Source of the DNA: Candidatus Deferrimicrobiaceae bacterium
GTDB lineage: Bacteria; Desulfobacterota; Deferrimicrobia; Deferrimicrobiales; Deferrimicrobiaceae
Assembly (NCBI GenBank): GCA_036504035.1
Contig: DASXVV010000011.1
Location: forward strand, 9,611 to 73,610
DNA length: 64,000 nucleotides
Direction of reading: 5' to 3'
Part shown: piece after piece, positions 8,010-52,548 of the stretch
Numbering within the stretch: the stretch's first letter is position 1
Layout of the letters: every line of letters starts with the position of its first letter
Translations under genes and position numbers: made by a program
The notes under the pieces: generated by a model
Databases searched by the model: none
Told to the model about the DNA's origin: nothing
What the model saw: the letters and a program-made list of their open reading frames with translations, nothing else

Positions 8010-8028
8010 CGGGGCTGCCGCCGCCGGG

Positions 8029-8673: not shown

Positions 8674-8676
8674 GGT

Positions 8677-29520: not shown

Positions 29521-29522
29521 CT

Positions 29523-30317
29523 TTGCATCGGGAACAGGAGCCCCGGGTCGGCCCCTTCGATCCGGCCCGGGCCGACCGGGTTCACCTTTACCGGTCCGTA
29601 TTCGACTCCCGGAACCCGACTCGCCGCCACCTTCACCACGAGCGCAACGCGAGGCTGACCGGCCTGCTCAACCGCTACGCGGCCGGCAAGCGGTGCCTCG
29701 AAGTCGGCATCGGAGGCAATCTTTACCGCGAGACGCTTCGGATTGTCCCGCGCTTCTGCGTGCGCCTCGACATCGACGCCGAATTCGTCCGGTTTTCCTC
29801 ATTCGAGGACAAGCAGTCCCCGCCCCCCCATCCGTTCTTCATGCAGGGAGACCTGCTCCGCCTCCCGTTCGCAGACGGGTCGTTCGACCTGGTCTTCTGC
29901 TCCGAGGTGTTCGAGCATCTGCCGCCCGGCCGCAGCCTCGATGCGTTCGGCGAAATCCGCAGGGTGCTGGCCCCATCCGGCAAGCTGATCCTCTCGACTC
30001 CCCAGAGCCACAGCTCGGTCGAGCTCATCATGCGGCTGGCCACCAGTCGCCTCTTTCGTGCCATCGCCTGCCGGATATACCCCGAAGCCATCATCGACAA
30101 CGAACACATCAACCTGCTGACCCGGCGGCAGCTGCTCGCCGAGGCGGCGCAATCCGGTTTCCAACCGGTCGAGTCGGGCCGCTGCGGCCTCTACATCCCG
30201 CTTCTCGCCGAATTCGGAGGCGAGTGGGGCCGTCGAATCTCCTCGTCGCTCGAGCCGATCTTCGACCGGAGCCCGGCCGGGTTCCTCTTGTGGACGCAAT
30301 ACCATGTCCTATCCTGA
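29523..30317 (+). CDS. Class I SAM-dependent methyltransferase
   Basis: Motif I LEVGIGGNLY and motif DLVFCSEVFEHL. A TTG start is proposed, so the start is uncertain. Confidence 0.5.
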   Translation: MHREQEPRVGPFDPARADRVHLYRSVFDSRNPTRRHLHHERNARLTGLLNRYAAGKRCLEVGIGGNLYRETLRIVPRFCVRLDIDAEFVRFSSFEDKQSPPPHPFFMQGDLLRLPFADGSFDLVFCSEVFEHLPPGRSLDAFGEIRRVLAPSGKLILSTPQSHSSVELIMRLATSRLFRAIACRIYPEAIIDNEHINLLTRRQLLAEAAQSGFQPVESGRCGLYIPLLAEFGGEWGRRISSSLEPIFDRSPAGFLLWTQYHVLS

Positions 30318-31305
30318 TGCCGCGGTCGCGTCGGAGGCACCCTCCTTGACGCCGTTGCCCGAAACCATTTCCGTCGTCGTCCCGGCCTTCAACGAAGAGC
30401 CGAACGTGCGGGTGCTCTACGAAAAGCTGGTTCCGATCCTGTCCGCCTGCGCCTCGACCTTCGAGCTCATCTTCGTCGACGACGGAAGCACCGACCGCAC
30501 GCTGCCGATCATCCAGGCCATGAGCGAGGCCGACCCGCGCGTCCGGTTCGTCTCCTTCTCGAGGAACTTCGGCCACGAGGCCGCTTCCACCGCGGGCCTC
30601 GACATCGCCTCGGGCGAGGTCACGATCCTGATGGACGCCGACCTCCAGCATCCTCCCGAGGTGATTCCCGACATGGTCGCGCGCTGGCGCGAAGGGTACG
30701 AGATCGTCTACGCGACCCGCCGGCTGCGCGAAGACCGGGGATGGCTGAAACGCAGCACCTCCTCCCTGTTCTACCGCCTGTTCAACCAGCTTTCCGAGGT
30801 TCCCCTGCCGGCCGATACCGGCGACTTCCGGCTGATCGACCGCAAGGCGCTCCTCGCGCTCCGGCGCTGCCGCGAGACCACCCGCTTCGTCCGGGGCCTG
30901 TCGATCTGGGTGGGCTTCCGCCAGTGCGGCGTCGAATACGACCAGAAAGAACGGCACGGCGGGATCACGAAATACAACTACCTCCGCCTCTCGCTGCTTG
31001 CACTCGATGCCCTCTGCTCGTTTTCGATCGCGCCCCTGCGCTTCTGCTTGGCGCTCGGGATGCTCGGCTTCCTTTTCGGCGCGGGCTTTTCCGTCCAGAT
31101 CCTGTTCGTCTGGTTCGTCTGGGGGGTGCCGCTGCCCGGCTACACCTTCCAGACCATCTCCATCCTGTTCATCGGCTCGCTCAACTTCATCCTGCTGGGC
31201 CTCATCGCCGAATATGTCGGCAAGACCTACATCGAGACGCGCAACCGCCCTCTCTATATCGTGCGCGCCCAGAGCAGCGCGCTCGGCGATCCCGAGGACA
31301 AATGA
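30304..31305 (+). CDS. GT2 polyprenol-phosphate glycosyltransferase (GtrB/ArnC/DPM1-like) with C-terminal transmembrane helices
   Basis: VVVPAFNEE...FVDDGSTD...DADLQHPPE with two C-terminal TM helices, typical of GtrB-type enzymes. Confidence 0.7.
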   Translation: MSYPDAAVASEAPSLTPLPETISVVVPAFNEEPNVRVLYEKLVPILSACASTFELIFVDDGSTDRTLPIIQAMSEADPRVRFVSFSRNFGHEAASTAGLDIASGEVTILMDADLQHPPEVIPDMVARWREGYEIVYATRRLREDRGWLKRSTSSLFYRLFNQLSEVPLPADTGDFRLIDRKALLALRRCRETTRFVRGLSIWVGFRQCGVEYDQKERHGGITKYNYLRLSLLALDALCSFSIAPLRFCLALGMLGFLFGAGFSVQILFVWFVWGVPLPGYTFQTISILFIGSLNFILLGLIAEYVGKTYIETRNRPLYIVRAQSSALGDPEDK

Positions 31306-31308
31306 TCC

Positions 31309-33483
31309 ATGAAACCGGTTAAGCCGCCCAAAGGCCGGGCAAGCTGGTTGATCGCCGCGGGCGCCTTCGCGATCCTCTTCCTGTTCCTGGTTTCCCCTCT
31401 GCTGTTGAAATCGGCCGAGCCGAGATGGGATGCCCGCGACCAGTTCTATCCGGCGTACACCTATTTTTCGGATTCGGTGCGGGAAGGCCGCCTTCCGCTG
31501 TGGGATCCCTACTCGAACTGCGGTTACCCCTTCCTCGCAGATCCCGACCATGTCACGCTCAATCCCCTGGCGCTGCTCCTCGCCGGCATGACCGACGACA
31601 CGTGGGGCGCCTTCATCGGCTTCTGGTCGATCCACTGGCTTGCGGCCGGACTTGGCATGTTCCTCCTCGTCCGCCACCTTGCCGGAACGCCGACGGGCGC
31701 TTTCGCCGCGGCGATGGCCTACGCCTTCTCCGGATTCTTCATCAGCAACGCCGAGCACACGCCGTATATCTGCGTGGCCGCCTGGCTGCCCTTCCTCGTG
31801 CTGCTGGCCGACCGCGCCGTCGAAACGGGGCGCTGGTCGTACGCGGTGCTCGCCGGGGGTGCGATGGGGGTCTCGACCCTCGGCGGCTACCCCCCGCTCG
31901 CCATGTTCAACGGGTATGCGCTGGCGCTCTGGCTGGTGCTTCGCCACGGGTTCGCATTCGGCAAAGACGGCCCCGATGCGGAATCCGTTTCGGGCCTGAA
32001 GCGGGGCGTCCGGATCCTCGCCGTCCTCGGCATCGTCGGCGCAATCGGAATCGTCGTCTGGTCGCCCGTACTCCACGCCTTCTTCACCGAAGGGGCCAAC
32101 TATACCGACCGGACCCGCTCGCTCGGCGCCGGCATCATTCTCGGATCGCCCTTCTCGCTGCCGTCGCACGCGTCGCTGTTTTCCCCCTACGCCACGATCC
32201 TGGGACGCGAATGGATGGGCATCGACATCGCGATGACCGACGGCTACGCCGGCATCCTCGCGTTCCCCCTCGCCGCGATCTGGCTATTGTCCGCAAAAGG
32301 GCGCAAGCGCTGGTGGTGGATCCCTGTCTTTTTCCTGTTCATGTACTGGATCTCGGTCGGGGGAAAGGGCGGCCTCGGAACTGTGCTGTCTTACCTGTTT
32401 CCCCCCATCAAGTTCATGCGGTTTTCGAGCCCCTTCCGGCTCTACTGGCTGTTCGCGCTGGCCCTCGGCGCCGGCATGGGGATCTCGACGCTTTGCCGGG
32501 ACTCCGAGGCGTCGCGCTCGGCTTTCCGGCTCCTCGCGGGCTGGTCCGGAATTTCCCTGGCCGCCTTCGCCGCGATCGCCTCGTTCCTTTCCTCGCACGG
32601 CATCGATGTGGCCGGCAACGCCGTCCCCCTCTTCCTGCCCGCGGCGGTCCTCGCGGCCGCGACGCTCCTCGCCTGGCGGCTTCACACGGCGCCGACGCCT
32701 TCGGGCACCGTCCCGGCGCTCCTGGCGCTGCTCGTCGCGTTCGACCTGGGGGCGCACCTGCGCATCAACCAGGAGACCGTCTGGGTCTACCGGGACTCCA
32801 TCGCCCAGGTCGAGCAATACCACCGCCGGACGACCGACGTGGCCGGCGAGCCGGGACCGCGCCATCCTCCGCGCCAGTTTGGGTTCTTCAATGTCCAGCA
32901 GGTCATCAAGGAGCCGATCGTCCTCGCCTCCCTGTCGCTCAAGGCGAAAGCGTTCGAAGACAACCTGTGCGACAGCCGGTTCGCCGAAGTGATGGCGTCT
33001 CCCGTCCGCTTCTGGCTGTCTCCCGGGGTCGAGAAGGCCGTCTCCGACAACGCGGTCCTGGCGGCGCTGGGCTCCGTCGGCGCCGGGGCGCCGGTTCCCG
33101 TCTTCGTCGGCGATCCCGGCAAGCTTCCCCCCGGCGGCGTCGTCCCGGGCGCCTACGGAACGGCGCGGGTGGTCGGCTACGCCCCCGAGCGCGTCGAGGT
33201 CATCGTCGACGCCCCGGGGAGCGCGCCCTCGGTCCTGGCCAGCACCGAACGCTACGCCGCCGGATGGCACGCGACGATCGACGGCGCCCCTGCGGCGGTC
33301 TTCCCGGTGAATCTCTACTTCCGCGGCGTCGTCGTGCCCCCGGGCCGGCATACGGTCGTCTGGCGCTACGAACCGCGGCTCTGGACCGCCCTGTGCGCAC
33401 TGAGCGGCGTCACCCTGCTCGCCGCCTGCTGCGGCTTTGTCTTCCTCTCGCGCCGCGAGCGTCGTACGATGGTGCTGTCATGA
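31309..33483 (+). CDS. YfhO-family polytopic membrane protein (putative GT-C glycosyltransferase partner of GtrB-like enzymes)
   Basis: 724-aa protein with ~13 TM helices. The N-terminal pattern W..DPY...GYPFLADP fits YfhO. It is immediately downstream of, and coupled to, the GtrB-like gene. Confidence 0.5.
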   Translation: MKPVKPPKGRASWLIAAGAFAILFLFLVSPLLLKSAEPRWDARDQFYPAYTYFSDSVREGRLPLWDPYSNCGYPFLADPDHVTLNPLALLLAGMTDDTWGAFIGFWSIHWLAAGLGMFLLVRHLAGTPTGAFAAAMAYAFSGFFISNAEHTPYICVAAWLPFLVLLADRAVETGRWSYAVLAGGAMGVSTLGGYPPLAMFNGYALALWLVLRHGFAFGKDGPDAESVSGLKRGVRILAVLGIVGAIGIVVWSPVLHAFFTEGANYTDRTRSLGAGIILGSPFSLPSHASLFSPYATILGREWMGIDIAMTDGYAGILAFPLAAIWLLSAKGRKRWWWIPVFFLFMYWISVGGKGGLGTVLSYLFPPIKFMRFSSPFRLYWLFALALGAGMGISTLCRDSEASRSAFRLLAGWSGISLAAFAAIASFLSSHGIDVAGNAVPLFLPAAVLAAATLLAWRLHTAPTPSGTVPALLALLVAFDLGAHLRINQETVWVYRDSIAQVEQYHRRTTDVAGEPGPRHPPRQFGFFNVQQVIKEPIVLASLSLKAKAFEDNLCDSRFAEVMASPVRFWLSPGVEKAVSDNAVLAALGSVGAGAPVPVFVGDPGKLPPGGVVPGAYGTARVVGYAPERVEVIVDAPGSAPSVLASTERYAAGWHATIDGAPAAVFPVNLYFRGVVVPPGRHTVVWRYEPRLWTALCALSGVTLLAACCGFVFLSRRERRTMVLS

Positions 33484-34172
33484 AAACGATGGTCCTCATC
33501 CCCGCCTACCACGAAGATAAATCCATCGGGGCGATCGTATCCACCCTCCGCGCGACTCTTCCGTACGATGTCGTCGTCATCAACGACGGCTCGCCCGACG
33601 ACACCTCCGAGGTCGCACGCAGCGCCGGCGCCATCGTGCTCGACCTGCCGTGCAATCTCGGCATCGGCGGCGCCGTTCAGACCGGATACCTTTTCGCGAG
33701 GGAGAACGGATACGAAGCCGTCGTGCGCATCGACGCCGACGGCCAGCACGAGATCGGGGATATTCCCGCGATGCTCGAACCCATCTTCCAGGGACGCGCC
33801 GATGCCGTCATCGGATCGCGCTTCCTGGGCGAGACCGAATATCGCGGCACCTTCCTGCGACGCTTCGGCATCCGCTACTTCTGCATCCTGGTGCGACTCT
33901 TCACCGGCTACCGCGTGACCGATCCCACCTCGGGCTACTTCGCCATCAACCGCAAGCTGGTCGACTTCTACTCGCAGCACTACCCGTCCGACTACCCCGA
34001 GGTCGACGCCTACATCCTGATGCACCACATGCATGCGCGCGCGGTCGAGATCCCTACCCGGATGCACTCGCGCACCGAGGGGAAATCGTCGATCACCCCG
34101 CTCGGCTCGGTGTACTATATGGTCAAGGTAACGCTTTCCTTCTTCATCAATTGCATCCGGAGATTCGGTTGA
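33480..34172 (+). CDS. GT2 glycosyltransferase (DPM1-like, soluble catalytic type)
   Basis: MKTMVLIPAYHED...VVVINDGSPDDT...IDADGQHE. ATGA overlap with the YfhO stop. Confidence 0.65.
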   Translation: MKTMVLIPAYHEDKSIGAIVSTLRATLPYDVVVINDGSPDDTSEVARSAGAIVLDLPCNLGIGGAVQTGYLFARENGYEAVVRIDADGQHEIGDIPAMLEPIFQGRADAVIGSRFLGETEYRGTFLRRFGIRYFCILVRLFTGYRVTDPTSGYFAINRKLVDFYSQHYPSDYPEVDAYILMHHMHARAVEIPTRMHSRTEGKSSITPLGSVYYMVKVTLSFFINCIRRFG

Positions 34173-34195
34173 ACCGGGTTACGCTCCTCGCCGCC

Positions 34196-34516
34196 ATGAG
34201 CGCCTTCGCGCTCGCGGCCTACATCATCGAAATGGTCCGGCGCCGCAAACTGCGCGAGGAATATTCCATCCTGTGGCTGTTCGGCAGCATCGTCATGGTC
34301 GTCCTGTCGGTCCGGAGGGACTGGCTCGAGGCCGCCTCGCACACCGTGGGCATCTTCTATCCGCCCTCGTTCCTGTTCCTCGTCGCCATCTTCTTCGTCC
34401 TGCTCATCCTCATCCACTTCTCGATCACCGTGTCGCGGCTATACGTGATGAACAAGAAGATGGCGCAGGAGCTCGCGCTGCTCAAGGAGCGGTTGTCAGG
34501 CGAACGCCCCCGCTAG
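34196..34516 (+). CDS. DUF2304-like small membrane protein
   Basis: Two TM helices with the conserved VRRRKLREEYSILW segment. An alternative TTG start at 34169 overlaps the GT2 stop. Confidence 0.45.
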   Translation: MSAFALAAYIIEMVRRRKLREEYSILWLFGSIVMVVLSVRRDWLEAASHTVGIFYPPSFLFLVAIFFVLLILIHFSITVSRLYVMNKKMAQELALLKERLSGERPR

Positions 34517-35784
34517 ATTCCTTTCGTCCGCAGGAACGCCTCGAACCGCTCGATCAATCGACCCATCGTCTCGTCCGAGGTCATCGGCGACAGCCCGATA
34601 TAGAACCCCCGGTCGTGCACGCGGTCGGCCCCGGGATACGGCGTGCCGTCGAAGCAGTCGAACAGCTTCGCGACCGGCTGCCGCTGAAGGTTGCCCGCGA
34701 TGATCGGGCGCGTCTCGATCCCCTCCCCTTCGAGCCAGGCGGTAATCTCGTCGCGCGAGAACGGCGCATCGTCCCCCAGCATGATCGGCAACGACATCCA
34801 GATGGGCGCCGCCTTGGCGCCCACAGCCGGACGCGACAGGCACGGCACGCGGTCGACGAACGCGAAGAAGCGGGCGGCCAGCGCCAGCCGCCGTTCGGTG
34901 AAGCCGGGCAGCCGCTTGAGCTGCTCGAGGCCGAAGCCCGCCTGCAGGTCGGTCGGGCGCACATTGAAGCCCCAGTTGACGAAGGCGTAGCGCGGGTCGA
35001 TCCCGCACCCGTCGAGGTGCACGTGCGACGCCTCGACATTGCGAAGCCACCCGTGGGCGCGCAGGACGCGGAGCCGGTCGGCCGTCTCGGCGTCGTCGGT
35101 GACGACCATCCCGCCTTCCATCGTGGTCATGTGGTGCGAGAAGAAGAACGAGTAGGCGCTGCCCACCCCGAAATTGCCCACCTTCCGGCCGTCCCATTCG
35201 GATCCGAGCGACTCGCAGCAATCCTCGATGACCGGCAGCCCATGCTTTTCCGCGAGGGCGAGCACGCGGTCCATGTCGCAGGGGTTGCCCATGACGTGAA
35301 CCAAAAAGATCGCCTTCGTCTTCGGCGAGATCTTGCGCTCGAGGTCTTCGATCGAGAGGTTGAGCGTCGCGGGGTCTACGTCGACGAAGCGCACCTTGAG
35401 CCCCGCCATCAGCGGCGACCAGACCTGCGTCGGCCAGGTGACGACCGGCACGAGGATCTCGTCGCCCGGCTTCAGCCGGTTGTCGGGCGGGCTGGTCAGG
35501 AGAAACGACAGCAGCAGGTCGGCGGAGGACCCGCTGTTGACCATGACCGCCTCGCGGCAGCCCTGGTATTCGGCGAACCGCTGCTCGAACTCTCGCGTCT
35601 TCTCCCACATCGTCGTGCGGAAGTTGCACATCGAGTCGAGCGCCTGGAGGATCTCCTCGACGCCGTAGGTGGCCATGCTAAGCGGGTACCAGTATTTCTG
35701 CGGTTTGGCCTCGTTGATGCGGCTGCTGGATTCGATCAGGAACTCGACGACGCCCTTCAGCCGGCCGGTCAGGTCGATGTTCAA
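34513..35784 (-). CDS. DegT/DnrJ/EryC1 family PLP-dependent sugar 3-dehydratase (ColD/E1-like) rather than an aminotransferase
   Basis: TTG start with Shine-Dalgarno GAGGGGAGG. The PLP-lysine position in the SF.x.K....EGG motif is His here (SFFFSHHMTTMEGG), the hallmark of GDP-4-keto-6-deoxymannose 3-dehydratase ColD and CDP-sugar E1. Confidence 0.5.
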   Translation of the reverse strand: MNIDLTGRLKGVVEFLIESSSRINEAKPQKYWYPLSMATYGVEEILQALDSMCNFRTTMWEKTREFEQRFAEYQGCREAVMVNSGSSADLLLSFLLTSPPDNRLKPGDEILVPVVTWPTQVWSPLMAGLKVRFVDVDPATLNLSIEDLERKISPKTKAIFLVHVMGNPCDMDRVLALAEKHGLPVIEDCCESLGSEWDGRKVGNFGVGSAYSFFFSHHMTTMEGGMVVTDDAETADRLRVLRAHGWLRNVEASHVHLDGCGIDPRYAFVNWGFNVRPTDLQAGFGLEQLKRLPGFTERRLALAARFFAFVDRVPCLSRPAVGAKAAPIWMSLPIMLGDDAPFSRDEITAWLEGEGIETRPIIAGNLQRQPVAKLFDCFDGTPYPGADRVHDRGFYIGLSPMTSDETMGRLIERFEAFLRTKGI

Positions 35785-36749
35785 CGAACCTCCCCTCGGC
35801 GCTTGAGCTCGCGGTATTCCGCGATCGTCCGGCGGATGCCCTCGGGAAGCCCGATCTTCGGGCGGATGCCCAGCGCCAGCATCCGGGAGACCTCCATGCA
35901 CTTGCGCGGCATGCCGTCAGGCTTCGTCGGATCCCATCGGATCTCGCCCGCGTAGCCCACCGCCTCGGCGATCATCCCGGCCAGCTCCTTGATGGTGAGG
36001 TCGACGCCGGGCCCCATGTTGATGATCGCATTCTCCTCGTACCGTTCCATCAGCGCCAGCATGATCTCGGCTGCGTCGTCGACGTGCAGGAACTCGCGCC
36101 GCGCCGACCCGGTGCCCCAGAGTTCGAGCGACGGCTTCCCCTCGTCTTTCGCGTCAACGAAGCGGCGTACAAGGGACGACAAAACGTGCGAGCGCTGGAA
36201 ATCGAAATGGTCGCCGGTGCCGTAGAGGTTGCACGGCATCGGGCAAATGGTGACCATGCCGTGCTGGCGCCAGTAGTATTCGGCCATCTTGAGCCCCATG
36301 ATCTTGGCCAGCGCGTACCCCTCGTTGGTCGGCTCGAGCGGGCCGGTCATCAGGTATGACTCGCGGATCGGCTGGGGGCATTCGCGCGGGTAGATGCAGG
36401 AGCTGCCGAGGAACATGTTTTTCCGTGTCCCGTACTTCCGGCACGCCTCGAACAGGTTCATCTGCGTCTTGACGTTTTCGGACAGGAAACCGACTGGATC
36501 TGCGCTGTTTGCGGCGATGCCGCCGACTTTTGCGCCAGCCATGAACACGTAATCCGGGTGGTTACGGTCGAACCAGCGGTCGACCGAGTCGGATGACAAA
36601 AGGTCGAGCTCGGCGCGCGGCGGTGCGAGTACGTTGGTATAAGTTTCCTTCCGGAGCAACCTGACCAAAGCGCCACCAACCATGCCGGTTCCGCCGGCAA
36701 CCAGGATTTTCGCGTTTTTATCCACGTTCCCTCCTTGTTCGAATGCCAT
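35781..36749 (-). CDS. fcl: GDP-L-fucose synthase family reductase/epimerase (Fcl; possibly GDP-L-colitose synthase ColC given the coupled ColD-like gene)
   Basis: KILVAGGTGMVGGALVRLL...YxxxK pattern of Fcl/WcaG. The stop overlaps the start of the dehydratase gene (ATGA). Confidence 0.65.
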   Translation of the reverse strand: MAFEQGGNVDKNAKILVAGGTGMVGGALVRLLRKETYTNVLAPPRAELDLLSSDSVDRWFDRNHPDYVFMAGAKVGGIAANSADPVGFLSENVKTQMNLFEACRKYGTRKNMFLGSSCIYPRECPQPIRESYLMTGPLEPTNEGYALAKIMGLKMAEYYWRQHGMVTICPMPCNLYGTGDHFDFQRSHVLSSLVRRFVDAKDEGKPSLELWGTGSARREFLHVDDAAEIMLALMERYEENAIINMGPGVDLTIKELAGMIAEAVGYAGEIRWDPTKPDGMPRKCMEVSRMLALGIRPKIGLPEGIRRTIAEYRELKRRGEVR

Positions 36750-36922
36750 TGGAACAAACTCTCGATTATATCCCTAGTCGGCATCCCGGTGCGCGAGAGG
36801 CTGCACGCCATATCAGCATCCTTCAGTCGGCGGAACCCTGAGCCATTGCATCTCCCCTTGGGTTGCCTTAATATGTGGATTATAGTTCCATATATTAATA
36901 CTAATCAAAGGATCGCGCCGCC

Positions 36923-38047
36923 ATGATTCCACGAGCCCTGTCGCTCGACCGGTTGGTCCGCCCCGGGAAAGTGCTGGTCATCTACGGCCCCCGGCAGGCC
37001 GGGAAAACCACGCTTCTGAATGCGTGGCTGGATTCCTGCGGCCTGCGCTATCGCCTGGAAACCGGCGACGACATCCGCCTCCGCCACCTGCTGGGCTCCT
37101 CCGACATGGAACAGATCCTCGGCTTCGCGGAGGGATACGACCTGCTGGCGATCGACGAGGCGCAGCAAGTGCCCGAGATCGGCACGGGGCTGAAGATCCT
37201 CGTGGATCACAACCCGGGCCTGAGAATCATCGCCAACGGGTCGTCCTCCTTCGATCTGGCCCACGCGGTCGGCGAACCGCTGACGGGCCGCAAGAAAACC
37301 GTCACGCTTTTTCCGATCTGCCAGATAGAGCTGCTCAAGCAGCACAACGCCCACGACCTGCGGGAACGGCTCGCGGAGTTTCTCGTTTTCGGCAGCTATC
37401 CCGAAGTGGTGACGACCACCGGCAAAAAAGGGAAAGCGGCCCTGCTTGACGAACTTGCCGGTTCTTACCTGCTCAAGGATGTGCTCGCGCTGGAACGAAT
37501 CCGCGAATCGCGGTCGCTGGTCGACCTGCTCAAGCTGGTCGCGTTCCAGGTCGGAAGCGAAGTCTCGCTCAGCGAATTGGCAACCCAGGTTCGCTTGGAC
37601 GTCAAGACCGTCGGCCGGTACCTCGACATCCTCGAGAAGGCGTTCGTCATCGTGCGTGTCGGGGGTTTCAGCCGGAACCTGCGGACCGAGATCGTCTCGA
37701 AGGCCAAATATTATTTTCTCGACAACGGCATTCGCAACGCCGTCATCGGCCAATACAATCCGCTCGATTCACGCAACGACATCGGCGCTCTGTGGGAAAA
37801 CTTCATCGTCTCCGAACGCATGAAAAAAAGGGCCTATGCCGGAATCCATGGCACCTTCCATTTCTGGCGAACGTATGGCGGACAAGAGGTCGATTACGTG
37901 GAGGAACGCGACGGCGGCCTTTTCGGTTACGAGTGCAAGTGGTCTTCGAACAAGCGCATCAAGGCGCCTTCCGCCTGGGCGGACGCCTATCCGGATGCGA
38001 CCTTCGAGACGATCACGCCCATAAATTACCTGTCGTTCGTGGGCTAA
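36923..38047 (+). CDS. AAA+ ATPase with C-terminal DUF4143 (AAA_14/DUF4143 family), copy A
   Basis: Walker A GPRQAGKTTLL. Overall collinear with 51272-52438 and 52549-53718. An AT-rich promoter-like region (36811-36905) lies upstream. Confidence 0.65.
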   Translation: MIPRALSLDRLVRPGKVLVIYGPRQAGKTTLLNAWLDSCGLRYRLETGDDIRLRHLLGSSDMEQILGFAEGYDLLAIDEAQQVPEIGTGLKILVDHNPGLRIIANGSSSFDLAHAVGEPLTGRKKTVTLFPICQIELLKQHNAHDLRERLAEFLVFGSYPEVVTTTGKKGKAALLDELAGSYLLKDVLALERIRESRSLVDLLKLVAFQVGSEVSLSELATQVRLDVKTVGRYLDILEKAFVIVRVGGFSRNLRTEIVSKAKYYFLDNGIRNAVIGQYNPLDSRNDIGALWENFIVSERMKKRAYAGIHGTFHFWRTYGGQEVDYVEERDGGLFGYECKWSSNKRIKAPSAWADAYPDATFETITPINYLSFVG

Positions 38048-38086
38048 CCCGCGGCACAAATCTCCTATGGCAGATATTCCGTCAAG

Positions 38087-38216
38087 GCGTGAAACAAAAT
38101 ACATGGCACGGAGAATCTCCCGGAACGGTCCTGACCGGCACCCGCCAGGTCGGGAAAAGCACGCTCCTTCGGCGCGAGTTTCCCGAATTGACCTACCGGT
38201 CGCTCCATTCGGGGAA
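38087..38216 (+). pseudogene. 5' remnant of a fourth AAA/DUF4143 ATPase gene, truncated where it meets the HepT/MntA module
   Basis: VKQNTWHGESPGTVLTGTRQVGKSTLLRREFPELTYRSL matches the N-terminal P-loop region of the DUF4143 paralogs, but the frame then runs into antisense of the HepT gene. Confidence 0.45.
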
Positions 38217-38636
38217 TCAGTCCGGTAAGTGTTTCAGGATGGCCCCTCGAAATTCCCCGAAATCGCCGAGATGCTTTCTCAGGACCAGCACCACGATCTC
38301 TGCATCCACACTTTCGTACTGGTGGACGACGATGTTCCGGAATTTCGCCATCTTTTCCATCACAGAAGAAAGGTCCGGGGAAATCACCCCGTTTTCGGAA
38401 AGGACCCGGAAGGTATCTGCATAACCGGTCGGAACGCGCATGCATTCGTCGGAAATGACGTGATTGGCTATATCGGCGCAGGTTTCAATCATCATCTGCA
38501 ACGTTCTTTCGACGATGCGCTGAACTTTCCAGTCGGCTCGGTATGCGCCGACCTCGATCGTCGAATATTCGCCCATTTCGACGATGTAGCGATCTAGTTC
38601 GGCAACTTTTCTGAGAATCAGATATTTATCGACCAA
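38217..38636 (-). CDS. hepT: HepT-like (DUF86/HEPN) RNase toxin
   Basis: 139-aa ORF with the Rx4HxY motif (RNIVVHQY). It overlaps the upstream MntA-like gene by 11 nt. Confidence 0.65.
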   Translation of the reverse strand: MVDKYLILRKVAELDRYIVEMGEYSTIEVGAYRADWKVQRIVERTLQMMIETCADIANHVISDECMRVPTGYADTFRVLSENGVISPDLSSVMEKMAKFRNIVVHQYESVDAEIVVLVLRKHLGDFGEFRGAILKHLPD

Positions 38637-39018
38637 GCCCGTACCTCAGCGATAGGAGTGTTTCTTCCTTTTTCCGAAAATCGAAAAACTGCCGCAACAT
38701 GGACGATTCGAATCGATGCCGGATGAACGGATGCTTGTCCACAAGCAACCTCCGGTTTTGAAGTACCCTTCCCGTGATGCTGACCGAGGATACGTTGAGG
38801 ACGACGAGATCGATCTCGGAAGTCCCGAGAACATCGCTGATCTTCGAGAACAGGTCCAGTTTGGTCTGTGCGATGGATTCGGTATCGGACAGATAAACCG
38901 CAAGATCGATGTCGGAAACCGGCTTGACCGGTCCGGTCGCACACCCTCCGAACAGATAGGCAAAAATGACCAGCGGATCACCCTGGAACATCCCGCAAAG
39001 CGCGGGCAGGCGATCCAT
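38626..39018 (-). CDS. mntA: MntA-like minimal nucleotidyltransferase antitoxin
   Basis: Start at MDRLPALCGMF. The GSx9-10DxD nucleotidyltransferase motif is FGGCATGPVKPVSDIDLAV. The longer 158-aa ORF has an artefactual N-terminus. Confidence 0.6.
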   Translation of the reverse strand: MDRLPALCGMFQGDPLVIFAYLFGGCATGPVKPVSDIDLAVYLSDTESIAQTKLDLFSKISDVLGTSEIDLVVLNVSSVSITGRVLQNRRLLVDKHPFIRHRFESSMLRQFFDFRKKEETLLSLRYGLGR

Positions 39019-39118
39019 GATTCCCACTGGCAATTTATCGAATTTGTACAATGCCCCCCCGGAACAGGAAGTCCTGACGGGCAGTTTACACCCAATCCAC
39101 AACGGAAGGAGTGCCTCC

Positions 39119-39163
39119 AGGCAACAACCTCGCGGGCTCCGGCTGGACCGCCCTGCTGGGGCT
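39119..39163 (+). repeat. Degenerate copy 1 of the wzx 5'-end segment
   Basis: aacctcgcgggctccggctggaccgccctgctggggctg versus aacctcgcgggatcgggctggaccgccctgctcggtctg in wzx (about 90% over 39 bp). In frame it encodes NNLAGSGWTALLGL. Confidence 0.5.
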
Positions 39164-39376
39164 GATCGGGGTCACCGCCAACCTTCCCGTAGGGTCCAGG
39201 CCCCATCCCTCGCAATAATCCACCCATGGGAGCACTTTCCGAAGACAGGAGCCATGTCATGCTGCCGAAAGACATCATTCTGGCGTCTCTGGAAGAGTTC
39301 GAGTTTTATCGGAAGGAAGCCGGCTCGGCATTTGGTGGTATACTACGTTGTAGCCACAAACGTGCCGGAGGTTTAC

Positions 39377-39706
39377 ATGTCCGAATCCGTAATCCGATCC
39401 CGCATCGACTCTGCCTTAAAGCTGGAAGCCCAATCGCTCCTCTCCAAATTCGGGCTGTCCATGAGCGACGCCATCCGGCTTTTCCTGCACCAGGTCGTCA
39501 TGGAAAAAGGGCTTCCCTTTGCCGTCCGGCTTCCCGAGGAAGCGGCAAAAGAGCACGACCGCTGGTTCCGGCTGCAGGTCGAGGAGGCCTTGAAGAAAGC
39601 CGACAACCCGAAAGCAGACTTCGCACCACACGATTCCGTCCATGCCCGTTGGAACCGGAAGCGAAAGGAATTGCAATCCCGCGTCGGCAAGGCCGACAAG
39701 GGATGA
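39377..39706 (+). CDS. RelB/DinJ-family antitoxin
   Basis: MSESVIRSRIDSALKLEAQSLLSKFGLSMSDAIRLFLHQVV is a DinJ/RelB-type ribbon-helix-helix N-terminus. The stop overlaps the toxin start (ATGA). Confidence 0.6.
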   Translation: MSESVIRSRIDSALKLEAQSLLSKFGLSMSDAIRLFLHQVVMEKGLPFAVRLPEEAAKEHDRWFRLQVEEALKKADNPKADFAPHDSVHARWNRKRKELQSRVGKADKG

Positions 39707-39954
39707 TCGTCGAGTGGTTGTCCGACGCACTCCAGGATTTCGATTCGATCGTGGAATATATCGCTGCCGACAATCCGGCAGCAGCTATCGAACAAGGTGA
39801 TGCCATCGAACAACAGGTCGGGCATCTGGGTTCCTATCCCCGAAGCGGACGCGTCGGCCGAACACCTTATCTTGCCGTCTATCGCATCCGGAAGGATCGG
39901 GTCCAGATCCTGCGGATTCTCCACGGGGCACAACTGCGGCCAAAAACATTTTGA
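39703..39954 (+). CDS. RelE/ParE-family toxin
   Basis: 83-aa ORF (MIVEWLSDALQDFDSIVEYIAADNPAAA...RIRKDRVQILRILHGAQ), the ParE-like size and pattern. Confidence 0.6.
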   Translation: MIVEWLSDALQDFDSIVEYIAADNPAAAIEQGDAIEQQVGHLGSYPRSGRVGRTPYLAVYRIRKDRVQILRILHGAQLRPKTF

Positions 39955-39967
39955 CCCAGCCGAACCC

Positions 39968-40102
39968 GTCCACCCCATGAGCCGGGTCAAGAAGAACTTC
40001 ATCGCCAACCTCGCGGGATCGGGCTGGACCGCCCTGCTCGGGCCGGCCTGCACGCCGCTCTACTTTGACGATTATTTGCCGGATTTCCGGGTCTGTTCGT
40101 AA
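39968..40102 (+). pseudogene. Duplicated 5' fragment of wzx (direct-repeat copy 2 at 39968-40063, then divergent sequence)
   Basis: 39971-40063 is about 98% identical to 40456-40548. It encodes MSRVKKNFIANLAGSGWTALLGPACTPLY, identical to the Wzx N-terminus, then diverges and stops. Confidence 0.6.
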
Positions 40103-40114
40103 TAAACTATCCCC

Positions 40115-40387
40115 ATGGGGCGAATCGAAGACATTCTCGGAGACGCCGTTGCACGTATCCGTAGCGTTTGCGACCCGCAAAAGATCATCCTTTTCGGTTC
40201 CCAGTCCGCAGGGGTACCAACGGGAGACAGCGATATCGACCTGATGGTCATATTGCCGACCGACGAGTTGCCACACCGGCGTTCCCTCCCGATTCGCAAA
40301 GCCTTGCGCGGGATATCCCTACCCAAGGACATCATTGTCAAGACCCCTGCCGCCCACTTCGGCACGATTCTCTATGAACGACCTTAA
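40115..40387 (+). CDS. Orphan minimal nucleotidyltransferase (MntA-like) with no adjacent HEPN partner
   Basis: FGSQSAGVPTGDSDIDLMV is a GSx9DxD motif. 90-aa ORF between wzx repeat copies 2 and 3. Confidence 0.55.
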   Translation: MGRIEDILGDAVARIRSVCDPQKIILFGSQSAGVPTGDSDIDLMVILPTDELPHRRSLPIRKALRGISLPKDIIVKTPAAHFGTILYERP

Positions 40388-40446
40388 AAGGGATTCGATT
40401 CGACGCTGGGTTCCGGCAATAACTCCTGCAATTCCTTGATGTCTAC

Positions 40447-40548
40447 GTCCACCTCCACCCCATGAGCCGGGTCAAGAAGAACTTCATCGCCAACCTCGCG
40501 GGATCGGGCTGGACCGCCCTGCTCGGTCTGGCCTGCACGCCGCTCTAC
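40447..40548 (+). repeat. Direct-repeat copy 3, the authentic wzx 5' end
   Basis: Matches 39968-40063 with a 6-nt indel and 2 mismatches over the 93-bp core. Confidence 0.6.
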
Positions 40549-41964
40549 ATCAAGTTCCTGGGGATGGAAGCGTACGGGCTGATCGGTTTCTACCTCACGA
40601 TGAACGGGGTGATCCAGATCCTCGACCTGGGCCTCAGCCCCACCATGACGCGGGAGATGGCGCGCTACTCCGCCCTGCCCGAGAAGGCCGGCGAAGCGCG
40701 CGACTTCGTCCGAACGCTCGAGATCGGCTACTGGGCGATCGGCCTCCTGATCGGCGCGGTGGTATATTTCGCCGCCCCCCTCATCGCCACCCACTGGATC
40801 AAGCCGGGGCGGCTGACGCCCGACGAGGTCCTCCACGCCATCCGGATCATGGGCGCCCTCGCGGCGCTGCAATGGCCCTTCAGCTTCTACCAGGGGGGGT
40901 TGATCGGGCTGCAACGGCAGGTGCTCCTGAACGGCCTCTCAATCGCGATGGCAACGCTGTCCAGCGTCGGCGCCGTGCTCATCCTGTGGCGCGTCTCGCC
41001 GACCGTTTCCGCCTTCTTCACCTGGCAGATCGCGGTGTGGTGCCTCCAGGTTGTCCTGATCACCGTGGCCTTGTGGCGCTGCCTGCCCGCAACGGAACGG
41101 CCAGCACGCATCACGCCCGCCCTTGTCCGCAACGTCTGGCAGTTCGCAGCCGGAATGAGCGGTATCACTCTGTCAGCGCTCATCTTGACGCAAATCGACA
41201 AAGTCATCCTGAGCAAGCTGCTCGACCTGACGACGTTTGGCTACTACATGCTTGCGAGCGTGATCACGACCGGAATTTCCTCGGTCCTGATCACGCCGAT
41301 GTTCAACACCGTCTTCCCCCGCTTCTCGGCGCTCGTGGCCGAGAAGGACGAAAAAGGTCTGACCGACATGTACCACGGCTCGACTCAGGTCATGGCCGTC
41401 TTGATTCTGCCCGTTGCGGCGGTTCTTTGCCTCTTTTCGCACGAGGTCATGATGCTTTGGACGCAGAACACGGAAGTGGCACGCAATACGGCCCCCATCG
41501 TCACCATCCTGGTCATCGGTACTGCTCTAAATGGACTAATGAATCTTCCCTATGCGCTCCAACTCGCACACGGATGGACCAAGATAGGCCTGCAGATCAA
41601 CACGGTCTTTATTTTCACGCTGGTTCCGACTATCCTTTTCCTGGCAACCAGATACGGGGCAGTGGGTGCGGCAGCGGTCTGGGTCTTATTGAATGGCACA
41701 TATATGGCCGTCGGCGTCCCATTGACTCATCGCCGACTCCTCCAAGGTGAGGCAGGAAGGTGGTTTTTACGCGATGTCGGCCTTCCCTTGACCGGTTCCT
41801 TGCTGGTGGTCCTGATCGGGAAGCAAGTACTCGATATCCCCCCGGCGCCGATCCCTGCAATCCTTTCCCTGGGGGCTCTTCTTCTTCTCGCCTTCACCGT
41901 CGCGGCCTTGGCAACTCCGCAATTGCGATATCTGTTGATGAAGCCAAAAGTCCCTGGGGCATAG
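40462..41964 (+). CDS. wzx: Wzx-type oligosaccharide flippase (MOP superfamily)
   Basis: 500-aa protein with about 12 TM helices and a typical Wzx N-terminus (KNFIANLAGSGWTALLGLACTPLYIKFLG). Confidence 0.65.
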   Translation: MSRVKKNFIANLAGSGWTALLGLACTPLYIKFLGMEAYGLIGFYLTMNGVIQILDLGLSPTMTREMARYSALPEKAGEARDFVRTLEIGYWAIGLLIGAVVYFAAPLIATHWIKPGRLTPDEVLHAIRIMGALAALQWPFSFYQGGLIGLQRQVLLNGLSIAMATLSSVGAVLILWRVSPTVSAFFTWQIAVWCLQVVLITVALWRCLPATERPARITPALVRNVWQFAAGMSGITLSALILTQIDKVILSKLLDLTTFGYYMLASVITTGISSVLITPMFNTVFPRFSALVAEKDEKGLTDMYHGSTQVMAVLILPVAAVLCLFSHEVMMLWTQNTEVARNTAPIVTILVIGTALNGLMNLPYALQLAHGWTKIGLQINTVFIFTLVPTILFLATRYGAVGAAAVWVLLNGTYMAVGVPLTHRRLLQGEAGRWFLRDVGLPLTGSLLVVLIGKQVLDIPPAPIPAILSLGALLLLAFTVAALATPQLRYLLMKPKVPGA

Positions 41965-48143: not shown

Positions 48144-48815
48144 TCAAATGACCAGCGAAGCCCCCGTTTTTTCCGATGGAGGGAGCGGTTTGTCCCATGC
48201 GGCCCTGACGGAAGCTTGCAACGATTGCCTGCACCGATCCGGCAGAGAAACCAGTTCGGGTTCATTGAACCAGCAGAGGATGCGAAGACATTCGGCGGGC
48301 GAGAAGGATTTCCCGAAAAGGGTGATCGCGTCGGAAAGACCTTGGAGGAGGCTCCCGCCATTTCCCAGGATTTCCGCGACATCGAGATAATCCTTCGGCT
48401 CGACACGATCGAATAGCGCTTTCAGCTTGGTGGCCAGCAGATCCCTGATCGAAGCGGCCAGGATCACCCCGTCACTTGAACGCTCCGGTACCCCCACTCT
48501 CCCGATTTTCAACCCTCCGAAGAAAGAGACCTTCACGCCAGCCCGCGACTTCGGTGGAACGGCGAGAACGACATAGGTCCCAGGTTCGTCCTGGAGAACC
48601 GTTGCATCCCCGATCCACGGGAGGGATTCAAGAAGAGTCCGGTCGAGAAGGCGGTCGCTGAAAAAGTCGAAATCAATCGATTGCCTGTGCCCGAACCGCA
48701 ATGCCAGCGCCGTTCCTCCGTAGAGGCAATACCCCATCCCCGACAGAGGCGCGAGCAGCGGCCACAGTTTTTTCTGGGCAGCGGGAAGGATGTCAGGCCG
48801 GGTCTGGAAGACCAT
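48144..48815 (-). CDS. AbiEii/AbiGii-family nucleotidyltransferase toxin (type IV TA)
   Basis: Start at MVFQTRPDILPAAQKKLWPLL. CLYGGTALALRFGHRQSIDFDFFS matches the GG[TS]A...R.S.D.D motif of AbiEii/DUF1814 proteins. It overlaps the upstream HTH gene by 23 nt. Confidence 0.55.
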   Translation of the reverse strand: MVFQTRPDILPAAQKKLWPLLAPLSGMGYCLYGGTALALRFGHRQSIDFDFFSDRLLDRTLLESLPWIGDATVLQDEPGTYVVLAVPPKSRAGVKVSFFGGLKIGRVGVPERSSDGVILAASIRDLLATKLKALFDRVEPKDYLDVAEILGNGGSLLQGLSDAITLFGKSFSPAECLRILCWFNEPELVSLPDRCRQSLQASVRAAWDKPLPPSEKTGASLVI

Positions 48816-49314
48816 CGCGCCTCCTCGTCGGCATCGGGGGAATCTCCACAGGTGGATCGAAACCCAGAACGGTGTGCCAGAGCGCCCATGATCTCGGGCG
48901 GAACCAACCGGGGCGCGCCTGCCTGAGGACGTCGATGAACGCTCTTTTCCCGAGCACCCCGGCGAGTTCCTGGATGTCTTCGAGTGTCCCGACATCCATT
49001 ACCTGTGCGATCACCCGAAGCGGGGTCTTGACTGATTCGACTGGCGGCTGCCACCAGATGTAACGCCCGGCCATCCGGCGAAGGATTCCCCCCACTCGGC
49101 TGGCGTTCCGTGGCGACCGGACGGGAGCAAGGTCATATCCGACTATGCCCAGAATCTTGTCGAGTTTTGCGAACCCCAGTTCGTTTTTGGTCCCTTTTTC
49201 GAGACTGTTCAGCGTCGCCCGGGAGACGCCGGCAAGTTCCGCAAGACGCGCCTGCGTGAGGTGCTCCTTCAGGCGTTCCTCCCGAACGATTTTCCCGATC
49301 GCGTAAAGTTCCAC
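48793..49314 (-). CDS. XRE-family HTH protein, putative antitoxin/regulator partner of the AbiEii-like toxin
   Basis: The N-terminal helix-turn-helix (LTQARLAELAGVSRATLNSLEKG) is XRE-type. An additional C-terminal domain follows. Operonic with the AbiEii-like gene. Confidence 0.5.
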   Translation of the reverse strand: MELYAIGKIVREERLKEHLTQARLAELAGVSRATLNSLEKGTKNELGFAKLDKILGIVGYDLAPVRSPRNASRVGGILRRMAGRYIWWQPPVESVKTPLRVIAQVMDVGTLEDIQELAGVLGKRAFIDVLRQARPGWFRPRSWALWHTVLGFDPPVEIPPMPTRRRDGLPDPA

Positions 49315-49519
49315 GAACGCCTCTTTCCCGACCAGACCTTGATGTCAATTATATTATACATTCGCGTGCCGGTGACCGGCAACGTCAACTTGTTACGGCG
49401 GCGTGCTGATCAGACGCACCAGTGCGAGAACATGCGATAACCCTGCCCCTTTTTTGAATCGCTGGCATCCCGCCCCAATTAGTCTTATAATTACCCTTAT
49501 GTCGTTTAAGGGGTCATGT

Positions 49520-49867
49520 ATGACTCATTTGCTGCTAGGAAGTCAAGCACTTCTGCCGGATGTCTCTCGGGTGGTCACCCTTCTCGGCGAACGGATCCGG
49601 ATTGCCCGGAAGCGGCGTGCAATGACCATCCAGGAGCTTGCATCGCGAATGTTCGTTACCCGAAAAACGGTTTCCCGGCTCGAAAAAGGTGATCCCGGCG
49701 TCTCTCTTGGCGTATTCGCGTCGGCGCTCTGGGTCCTGGGCCTCGACAAATCCCTTCTGGAGGTCGCCGTTCCCGAACGAGACGAAGTCGGGCTTTTCCG
49801 CGAGCGGCAGCGCCTCCCGCTCCGCATCCGGCCTTCCGCTAACCCGGACGACGATCCGGATTTTTGA
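49520..49867 (+). CDS. hipB: HipB-like XRE-family HTH antitoxin
   Basis: MTHLLLGSQALLPDVSRVVTLLGERIRIARKRRAMTIQELASRMFVTRKTVSRLEKG. Shine-Dalgarno AAGGGG. A TATAAT at 49486-49491 lies upstream. The stop overlaps the hipA start (ATGA). Confidence 0.6.
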   Translation: MTHLLLGSQALLPDVSRVVTLLGERIRIARKRRAMTIQELASRMFVTRKTVSRLEKGDPGVSLGVFASALWVLGLDKSLLEVAVPERDEVGLFRERQRLPLRIRPSANPDDDPDF

Positions 49868-51114
49868 CGATGCCCGTGCGTCGCCTAACGGTTTTCATCT
49901 ACTTGCCGGGGGAAACGACAGCGGTCCCGGCCGGAATTTTCACCCATGACGATGACGCCGGCATCGGCGCCTTCGCTTATGGGCGGCGATATCTCGATCG
50001 CGGAAATGCGCTTCCGGTCGACCCGATCGCACTGCCGCTTGGCTTGCGGCCGCGTGAGATTACAACCAACGGCGGGTTGTACGGCGCCTTTCGCGATGCG
50101 TCGCCCGATTACTGGGGGCGGATTGTCATCGCCGCCGAAGCCGGGACTGCCCCCGAGGCGCTATCGGAAATCGACTTTCTGGTCGCCGCAAACGCCACCC
50201 GGGTCGGCAATATCGATTTTCGCCTGTCTTCGGAAGATCCGGAACCGGCCTTGGGTCCGCCTCATTTCGATCAACTCGCAAACATCATCGACGTTGCCGG
50301 AAAAATCGAAGCGCACGAACCGGTCGAGACGCACCTGCTCCAAATTCTCCGCCAAGGAACCAGCATGGGGGGGGCCCGGCCGAAATGCGTCGTCGAATGG
50401 AATGACGCCCTGTGGATCGCGAAATTTCCCGCGAAAGACGACTCGCTCGACATACCCCGAATCGAATACGCCACGATGACGCTCGCCCGCCGATGCGGGA
50501 TCCAGATCCCCGACACACACCTCATGACGATCGGAAACAGGAACGTGTTCCTGATCCGGCGTTTCGACCGGGAAAAAGGCGATGGAGGGTGGCTGCGGAC
50601 CGGCTTCCTGAGCGCACTTTCGCTGATGCAGTGGGACGAGCGCGATCGGCAGAAGTGGGACTACACCGCAATCGCCGACACGATGCGCCGACACACACCG
50701 CCCTCGGATCTCCGTGAGTTGTATCGACGGATGATTTTCAATATTTTCGTCAGGAACACGGACGATCATCCCCGCAATCACGCCTTTCTCGTCGAGAAGG
50801 ACGGTTTGTTGCGGCTCTCTCCGGCCTACGACATCGTTCCCTCGCTGACGCAACCCGGCGTGGGGACGCAATTCCGGCTCGCCATGTCGGTCGGAGCACA
50901 TGGGCGGGAAGCCACGCCCGAAAACGCGCTGAGCCGCGCCGCGCGATTCGGCTTATCGGGTGAGGAGGCCGGCGGGGTGATCGCGTCGATGGCCGAAACC
51001 GTCTCGGGTTGGCAAGATCATTTTCGGGGATGCGGGATACCGAAAAAGGAATGCGACATCCTGCGGGCATCGTTTCGTGGAACGTCAAGCCGTACGTCCC
51101 GAGGCAAGGCCTGA
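49864..51114 (+). CDS. hipA: HipA-family serine/threonine kinase toxin
   Basis: 416-aa protein with a HipA N-terminal coupling region and a kinase-like core (...GGARPKCVVEW...DDHPRNHAFL...). Confidence 0.65.
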   Translation: MTMPVRRLTVFIYLPGETTAVPAGIFTHDDDAGIGAFAYGRRYLDRGNALPVDPIALPLGLRPREITTNGGLYGAFRDASPDYWGRIVIAAEAGTAPEALSEIDFLVAANATRVGNIDFRLSSEDPEPALGPPHFDQLANIIDVAGKIEAHEPVETHLLQILRQGTSMGGARPKCVVEWNDALWIAKFPAKDDSLDIPRIEYATMTLARRCGIQIPDTHLMTIGNRNVFLIRRFDREKGDGGWLRTGFLSALSLMQWDERDRQKWDYTAIADTMRRHTPPSDLRELYRRMIFNIFVRNTDDHPRNHAFLVEKDGLLRLSPAYDIVPSLTQPGVGTQFRLAMSVGAHGREATPENALSRAARFGLSGEEAGGVIASMAETVSGWQDHFRGCGIPKKECDILRASFRGTSSRTSRGKA

Positions 51115-51271
51115 GCGGGATCCGCCTCTCCTTCTGCATCACCACGCGTAACCGGTGCGACGTGCTCGGAGAAACGGTCCGGAACCTGCTCGATGGGGCC
51201 CGGACTTTAGCAGGGGTGATCTCTTCGCACTTATCCTTGCATTCATGGACTATTAGTCCATAATTGCAAGC

Positions 51272-52438: not shown

Positions 52439-52548
52439 AGGCGCCCCGGCATATCCGGTCGGCTTCCTGCCCCGGGCCTCGCAAAGTCGCCGCTAAAGAT
52501 TGAAATCACGCCACCAGGCCTACATGATTTCATGGTAATATGTGTCCC

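Follow-up and report, generated by a model that had tools for sequence, protein, structure and literature searches.

Copies of the flippase 5' end and the genes between them

The window analysed here, a stretch of 64,000 nucleotides (nt) from a 290-kb Joint Genome Institute (JGI) metagenome contig of one uncultured lineage (a Candidatus Deferrimicrobiaceae bacterium), carries a gene for a Wzx-like oligosaccharide flippase whose 5' end is found in three direct copies, termed R1, R2 and R3 from left to right, with toxin-antitoxin genes before and between them. The last copy belongs to the working gene, and the unit in front of it (cassette X) is missing, together with one copy of the repeat, from a strain that is ~99% identical. 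The features of the locus are the following (aa, amino acids).

38217–38636, minus strand: HepT, a HEPN RNase toxin, apparently intact (PF01934, E=1.5e-31)
38626–39018, minus strand: MntA nucleotidyltransferase antitoxin, partner of HepT (PF18765, PF01909; start as in the source record)
39123–39168, plus strand: R1, a relic of a flippase 5' end, codons ~10–24, cut on both sides
39210–39345, plus strand: relic of an MNT-type nucleotidyltransferase, keeping the start region (ATG at 39226) and a C-terminal piece (39265–39345), with the middle deleted
39377–39706, plus strand: RelB antitoxin (PF04221)
39703–39954, plus strand: ParE toxin, 83 aa (PF05016)
39967–40063, plus strand: R2, a flippase stub from -10 to +87, opening a 41-aa open reading frame (39977–40102) that is called in the source record
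40064–40445, plus strand: cassette X, 382 nt, made up of a 51-nt leader, a nucleotidyltransferase, a HEPN stub and ~30 nt of unassigned origin
40115–40387, plus strand: nucleotidyltransferase with an in-frame 16-aa deletion (Pfam; closest relative P0122, 65%)
40374–40439, plus strand: open reading frame of the HEPN toxin stub, homologous over ~14 codons, to 40415
40446–40548, plus strand: R3, the copy belonging to the working gene, with a private tandem duplication of TCCACC 8 nt before the ATG
40462–41964, plus strand: Wzx-like oligosaccharide flippase, 500 aa, full length (PF01943, PF13440)

An ungapped repeat search aligned 39969–40063 with 40454–40548 as a direct repeat of 95 nt (93/95 identical, 98%); when a 6-nt TCCACC indel is allowed, the homology starts 10 nt upstream of the ATG and takes in the whole of R2 and R3 as listed above. 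The third copy was recognized at 39125–39164, where 36 of 40 positions are identical to both R2 and R3, and it widens to 39123–39168 when aligned to the flippase allele of L091, the closest of the full-length homologs (71% identity, within a range of 60–71%). A 36-nt core with up to three mismatches occurs at exactly these three sites (expected 0.00 in 100 shuffles), and R2, R3 and the R1 relic are the only copies of the repeat in the 64 kb. This analysis, together with the Pfam matches, confirmed what an earlier note on this DNA had proposed from the sequence, namely that copies of the flippase 5' end bracket toxin-antitoxin cassettes, as well as its naming of HepT, MntA, RelB, ParE, the nucleotidyltransferase and the flippase; its coordinates were 2–6 nt off at most. 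The flippase itself, with its Polysacc_synt domain, its length of ~500 aa and its place in a cluster of glycosyltransferase and sugar-modification genes, would belong to the Wzx/MOP superfamily, while its substrate and the name wzx are presumptive.

The leftmost copy had been taken in that note for a decayed duplicate of the present gene. It is instead the relic of another, L091-like flippase allele, since it is closer to L091 (40/43) than to R3 (38/48), and at the sites that distinguish the alleles (GGC, TCC, GGG, CTG, ATC) it agrees with L091 and not with R2 or R3. The stub R2 is young; its private changes are GGT CTG to GGG CCG, one of which converts Leu to Pro.

Read from the left, the layout is R1, the MNT relic, RelB/ParE, R2, the deleted MNT gene, the HEPN stub and R3 with the flippase. 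The statement that a different cassette follows each copy is not supported: an MNT(-HEPN) cassette stands directly after both the first and the second, and RelB/ParE comes behind the first of these; the nucleotidyltransferase ATG lies 57 nt past flippase position +72 in the first unit and 66 nt past it in the second. The translation of 39226–39375 matches the C-terminal part of P0122 (PKDII..EFE.YR..G..FG.IL; BLASTP E=4e-6, a score reached by 0 of 2000 shuffles), and the match covers the very segment that the 40115–40387 nucleotidyltransferase has deleted. The start region of the first relic, TCGCAATAATCCACCCATGGG, shows a weak DNA similarity to the second cassette, of a level attained by ~5% of shuffles.

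The nucleotidyltransferase at 40115–40387 belongs to a family of ~105-aa proteins. Because its intact relatives (at loci L094 and L097) pair a 105-aa nucleotidyltransferase with a 134-aa PF05168 HEPN protein, this seemingly orphan gene is an MNT-HEPN operon minus its toxin. DNA homology of cassette X to L093, the locus of P0122, runs from ~40085 (~30 nt before the ATG) to 40415, into the HEPN gene; the leader, on the left of the cassette, bears no relation to that of L093. The 48-nt in-frame deletion in the nucleotidyltransferase is flanked in an intact relative by a short direct repeat, CC(C/T)GCCG, a mark of slippage deletion. The RelB and ParE domains match at E=2.9e-14 each and their genes overlap by 4 nt; ParE is ~11–14 residues shorter than the solved homologs 6x0a and 7etr in a gapped alignment. 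A nucleotidyltransferase antitoxin with an adjacent HEPN toxin, which defines a HEPN/MNT pair, is found at 38217–39018 on the minus strand and not in the 40115–40387 unit. Most of these toxins look disabled, and only HepT/MntA seems whole. A promoter and terminator scan of 38900–40700 found nothing.

At L093 (2366–3682) the P0122 cassette is likewise bracketed by direct repeats, in this case of a fragment of a neighbouring AbiEii-like gene. Copy A (2366–2717) and copy B (3484–3682) share segments of 131 nt (97%), 58 nt (98%) and 25 nt (96%); copy B has two in-frame deletions of 63 and 90 nt, and the HEPN gene breaks off at the junction. Flanking repeats as a general trait of the MNT-HEPN family were rejected, as L094 and L095 are without them. 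At L097 (881–1104, 1974–2176 and 3742–3990), all gaps between small defence or toxin-antitoxin genes share composite octamer tandem arrays in the order (CGAAGGTC)n, (GGAAACTG/GGAAAATG)n and then AAACAGTAAACAGT, which resembles a repeated cassette boundary in another genome.

An empty site in a near-identical strain

A Logan contig (L100) of the ~99% identical strain was found via its RelB homolog, which is 97% identical, and aligns with the window by blastn in four blocks.

L100 1–5326, window 29193–34518: 98.8% identity
L100 5337–7590, window 35797–38050: 97.6% identity
L100 8836–10687, window 38212–40063: 99.0% identity
L100 10593–11292, window 40454–41153: 99.0% identity

The last two blocks overlap by 95 nt in L100, and this overlap is its single copy of the repeat, through which the contig runs straight: ParE directly adjoins an intact flippase gene, of which the contig covers at least 230 aa. 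The window exceeds L100 here by 485 nt, that is, the 382-nt cassette plus the duplicated target (~97–103 nt). L100 is the empty site for cassette X plus duplication, and cassette number thus varies between related strains, as the earlier note had anticipated; its description of a homology-driven acquisition that duplicates its target is a fair one. R1 (unchanged), the MNT relic and RelB/ParE are all kept in L100, so the first event predates the split between the two strains. Flippase DNA to the right of R3 is 99.0% identical to L100 (7 mismatches in 700), no more diverged than the rest; cassette X brought no foreign flank with it.

Where R2 and R3 differ, they do so towards the cassette: R2 has GGGCCG at its right end, and R3 has the TCCACC duplication at its left end. 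Their outer sides are as in L100. A crossover within the repeat predicts such a pattern, although chance would produce it with odds of ~1/3 to 1/2, so that the support it gives is weak.

The lineage is represented by three contigs: the window, L100 and L102. The last, a Logan contig from another run, is 100% identical to window 33703–39998 and ends exactly 30 nt into R2, which is the behaviour expected at a repeat from an assembly graph with k=31, as used for Logan. It may derive from the same reads or sample as the window and would, in this case, give no independent confirmation of the join between R2 and the cassette.

Gene content at this locus turns over between near-identical strains, with two further differences within 6 kb. 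A DegT aminotransferase gene on the minus strand (window 34519–35796) is missing in L100 (L100 5327–5336), and L100 has at 7591–8835 a 387-aa Fic gene where the window has a 161-nt ATPase stub (38051–38211); neither is associated with a flanking duplication.

Routes by which the cassettes could have arrived

Over its first ~90 nt the flippase gene retains 80–90% nucleotide identity across 43 loci from several phyla. Identity to L091 is 88–90% in the first 300 nt and falls steadily to ~50% at the 3' end, and GC (guanine plus cytosine) content of the gene drops from ~0.66 to ~0.55 near 41200, which suggests that the flippase lies partly in a conserved flank and partly in a variable portion of the locus that has been swapped. 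The two relatives L091 and L092 differ from each other in the same manner (96% down to ~40% along the gene). Loci L003–L055 hold a flippase family with an almost invariant N-terminus, MSRVKTNFFANLAGSGWTALVGLACTPLYI..., and 45–70% protein identity; the labels of its metagenome-assembled genomes include Bacteroidota, Acidobacteriota, Anaerolineae, Planctomycetota, Cyanobacteria and delta-proteobacteria among others. Such a distribution points to a wide spread of the flippase locus by horizontal transfer.

The DNA in front of the flippase is a variable islet of toxin-antitoxin and defence genes (36787–40445, no strand assigned) between an epimerase gene on the minus strand and the flippase gene, with a GC content of 0.50–0.58 vs. 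~0.65 outside. In the relatives L091 and L092 the gene order is epimerase (minus strand), DegT aminotransferase (plus strand) and flippase, the aminotransferase stop overlapping the flippase start as GTGA. Blastn homology of L091 to the window ends at 36786, in the epimerase/DegT spacer, and resumes at 40463, at the flippase start, so the islet sits at the exact place of the relatives' aminotransferase gene; the same comparison found no remnant of that plus-strand gene in the islet. By this comparison of gene orders, the 3.7-kb islet appears to have replaced the DegT aminotransferase gene that precedes the flippase in relatives. Its remaining genes are the following.

36923–38047, plus strand: AAA_14/DUF4143 ATPase gene, intact (PF13173, PF13635)
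38051–38211, plus strand: N-terminal P-loop stub of another AAA_14 ATPase, 161 nt (weak AAA_14 match)

The ATPase stub was considered as another recent 5' duplication and rejected, as only its P-loop is similar to the ATPase genes of the window.

No marks of site-specific recombination were found. Among the genes examined from 16.9 to 63.6 kb, none carries a Phage_integrase or other recombinase domain. Single-strand folds of R2 and of the cassette tail (both strands) and of the two leaders (plus strand) gave z values of -0.4 to +2.3 vs. shuffles, none of them an attC-like fold, and the repeat search detected no inverted repeats at the cassette boundaries. On these three grounds the integron reading, raised by the remark that the arrangement is integron-like, was rejected; the accompanying observation that the repeats are flippase coding sequence and not attC-like stands. 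An attachment site in an RNA gene was likewise rejected, with no transfer RNA (tRNA) or transfer-messenger RNA (tmRNA) gene found in the window and no Rfam match in 36500–41000 at E<=1, and so was carriage by a phage, with no exact match to the repeat or the cassette in viral contigs.

The locus is probably the product of nested insertions with long target duplication into a toxin-antitoxin islet that had taken the place of the aminotransferase gene; the recombination behind them would have been homology-assisted and not site-specific. We hold this reading with moderate confidence. According to it, a patchwork islet of toxin-antitoxin and ATPase genes would have taken over the aminotransferase position, and cassettes of the MNT-HEPN type would have been inserted on at least two occasions within the ~90 bases that open the flippase gene. 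Each time, the previous 5' end would have become a dead stub to the left of the cassette, with an intact 5' end to its right. The joining would be the work of host general recombination using the flippase 5' end as homology, with no dedicated recombinase, either by single-crossover entry of a small circle consisting of the repeat plus the cassette, or by recombination with DNA of a sister strain, through homology towards the flippase and illegitimately at the opposite end. Because the same repeats would allow loop-out loss, R2 x R3 recombination being the reverse step, the cassette would come to be present in some strains and absent from others. Once inside, these toxin genes have decayed: HEPN cut to a stub, the first nucleotidyltransferase gutted and ParE shortened. 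Homology-assisted insertion is favoured because the flippase 5' end is well conserved, site-specific features are lacking and no foreign flank came with the cassette; positioned at the limit of the flank that is conserved in this variable polysaccharide locus, this 5' end should make a good homology arm. The repeats, the nature and decay of the cassettes, the empty site in the sister strain and the lack of integrase and attC features in what was examined are observed directly; the recombination route, and a gain here as opposed to a loss in L100, are what we infer.

Several points weigh against this explanation. A tblastn screen for additional N-terminal copies at 53 genome loci and 35 metagenome loci of related flippases, the latter from a collection that does not contain the source contig, found a second 5' copy in 0 of the 88, so the pattern is seen at no other flippase locus and the earlier note's insertion hotspot, as a general property of the flippase family, was rejected. 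Only three contigs of the lineage are available, one of them possibly sharing its reads with the window. Instead of a gain in the window, the change could be a loss from L100 through R2 x R3 recombination; R2 and R3 differ by 2/95, compared with ~1% between the strains. Two cassettes have landed at nearly the same point (stub ends within ~15 nt), which is not what random illegitimate joining would predict; the right ends of R1 and R2 lie at ~+72 and ~+87, and only two events are available for locating a shared crossover core. A site preference, a common ancestry of both stub-plus-cassette units, or coincidence may lie behind this, and it is possible that such a unit has been long in circulation with its stub kept similar to the neighbouring gene by conversion. 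Finally, the 0.5-kb circle is a hypothetical intermediate that, to our knowledge, nobody has observed.

A bolder extension of homology-assisted insertion, which we find doubtful, would make the flippase stub plus MNT-HEPN cassette a minimal mobile unit without a recombinase, leaving by loop-out as a ~0.5-kb circle or as transforming DNA and re-entering by means of its stub as homology arm. If true, such a unit could enter any genome with this flippase, given the conservation of its first ~90 nt across phyla; it would account for the two arrivals of related cassettes at almost the same codon, and might explain the cassette at L093 bracketed by 97–98% repeats of its neighbouring gene.

Unlikely in our estimate is a tandem build-up of decayed integrative elements, in which related elements with a site-specific integrase, each bringing a replacement 5' end, integrated in succession at the flippase 5' end as their attachment site, R1, R2 and R3 are attL/attR scars, and the integrases and most of the cargo were later deleted. 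Elements that target and restore gene ends are known (islands in dusA, SXT in prfC, e14 and phage 21 in icd), and several features look the part: decay is graded from left to right (R1 a relic, R2 98% identical, R3 intact), both stubs are followed by the same kind of gene at similar spacing, R2 and R3 share a left limit at -10, and R1 is a foreign allele, as expected if an element carries its own copy of the site. However, no integrase or other recombinase occurs in the genes examined, and the youngest "element" is only 382 nt long and a 99% identical strain lacks just that much, which leaves almost no time for the loss of an integrase. In addition, the closest relative of the cassette (L093) has an unrelated left leader and is bracketed by fragments of another gene, the intact cassette of L094 has no flanking repeats, and occupied sites are found in none of the 88 flippase loci.

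We consider quite unlikely a local tandem duplication with unequal crossing-over of the cassette plus flippase 5' end, followed by differential decay, with no new DNA brought in at each event. Such a history would suit the head-to-tail repeat, the succession of stub, leader and nucleotidyltransferase at similar spacing in the two units, and the reciprocal losses, with the first unit keeping RelB/ParE and the second the nucleotidyltransferase. Nevertheless, the two nucleotidyltransferase copies have diverged far (39% aa identity over 33 residues vs. P0122; ~70–75% DNA identity where comparable), whereas R2 and R3 are 98% alike, and R1 is a different allele. Moreover, ParE in L100 adjoins the repeat directly, with no cassette between, and cassette X was therefore not made by duplicating what was there.

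An assembly artefact, in which two co-existing strains, or a strain and a small circle, were threaded into one path through the shared repeat, had been named in the earlier note as a possible refutation and is highly unlikely, even though L102 may share its sample with the window. In its favour, the window is metagenome-derived, the break of L102 at the repeat shows that the assembly graph branches there, and a strain without the cassette exists. Against it, the path could be built only if reads hold both the R2(+87)/leader and the cassette/R3 junction, and a single linear genome containing the two junctions necessarily has two copies of the repeat. Moreover, the private variants of R2 and R3 fit two separate copies, the longest exact shared run is ~80 nt, a length that large assembler k-mers and read lengths normally exceed, and R1 and the first relic are present in both strains.

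Comparable systems and the wider polysaccharide cluster

Cassette exchange based on minimal mobile elements in naturally transformable bacteria, like homology-facilitated illegitimate recombination, moves cassettes via conserved flanks and without mobility genes, and in its classical form, by flanking homology, leaves no duplication. The present locus resembles it in the use of a conserved neighbouring sequence as recombination arm and differs in that the homology arm itself is duplicated, so that the duplicate could serve as a portable arm. Islands at gene ends encode their own recombinase and are kilobases long. They share with this locus the direct repeats of a gene end flanking the insert and a gene kept intact by the supplied replacement end, but the inserts here measure 0.4–0.8 kb, and the genes examined include no recombinase. 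Chromosomal integrons rich in toxin-antitoxin cassettes offer a likeness in that small units, mostly poor in promoters and several of them toxin-antitoxin, follow one another in the same orientation before a fixed point; in contrast, the present locus has no IntI integrase in the genes examined and no attC hairpins, its repeats are coding sequence of the downstream gene, and it comprises two or three units only.

The closest match is provided by restriction-modification units that are flanked by 30–420-bp target duplications and lack mobility genes (PMC2853133; PMC3874152), described as "insertion with long target duplication" (Nobusato et al. 2000, Gene 259:99; Furuta, Abe and Kobayashi 2010, PMC2853133). 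The criteria of Furuta and colleagues (PMC2853133) are addiction genes in the insert, an insert of <20 kb without transposase, integrase or phage genes, unique repeats of >30 bp, and an empty site with one copy, and all four are found here. The insert at 40064–40445 is a remnant of an MNT-HEPN operon (although its toxin is only a 14-codon stub and its antitoxin has the 16-aa deletion); it is 382 nt long, with no mobility gene in the genes examined; the repeats measure 95 nt at 93/95, or 97 and 103 nt with the indel; and in L100 the ParE flank and the flippase body, both at 99.0%, enclose a single copy of the repeat, by gain or by loss. In both cases, thus, a small addiction-type unit lies between direct target repeats of tens to hundreds of bp, with no transposase or integrase and an empty site in a relative, and the repeats can support amplification or loss. 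The differences are that the cargo here is toxin-antitoxin (MNT-HEPN, RelB/ParE) rather than restriction-modification, that the events lie nested within a single site and restore the start of a working gene, and that the DNA-breaking enzyme proposed as driver for the restriction-modification units is absent, HEPN being an RNase. We found no paper in the literature searched that uses the term for toxin-antitoxin cassettes.

Overall, the locus is a real, well-defined and mostly ordinary recombination scar that differs between strains by presence or absence; scars of this kind have been described before for restriction-modification genes. All of the evidence is from a single uncultured lineage, and 88 further loci of the gene family lack the pattern, which may not be general. 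Movement of chromosomal toxin-antitoxin cassettes without mobility genes is poorly documented. The locus provides a clean example of it: of two ~99% identical strains, one has the site occupied and the other has it empty, the duplicated target is long, and an older scar of the like lies alongside. It extends to toxin-antitoxin cassettes the pattern described for restriction-modification units. It would also indicate that a conserved flippase 5' end bordering a variable polysaccharide locus can serve as a recombination arm, and it illustrates a quick decay of toxin genes after arrival.

By gene annotation, the window from ~28 kb to >63 kb is a polysaccharide-synthesis cluster of glycosyltransferases, sugar epimerases, dehydratases and methyltransferases, broken up by two low-GC islets of toxin-antitoxin and AAA_14/DUF4143 ATPase genes. 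The second islet (48144–53718) contains AbiEii/AbiEi-like genes, HipB/HipA and two tandem AAA_14/DUF4143 ATPase genes (51272–52438 and 52540–53718). At the far end of the window, an open reading frame of 633 aa on the minus strand (61683–63584) has a gene-like codon GC pattern and no Pfam match at E<=1e-5.

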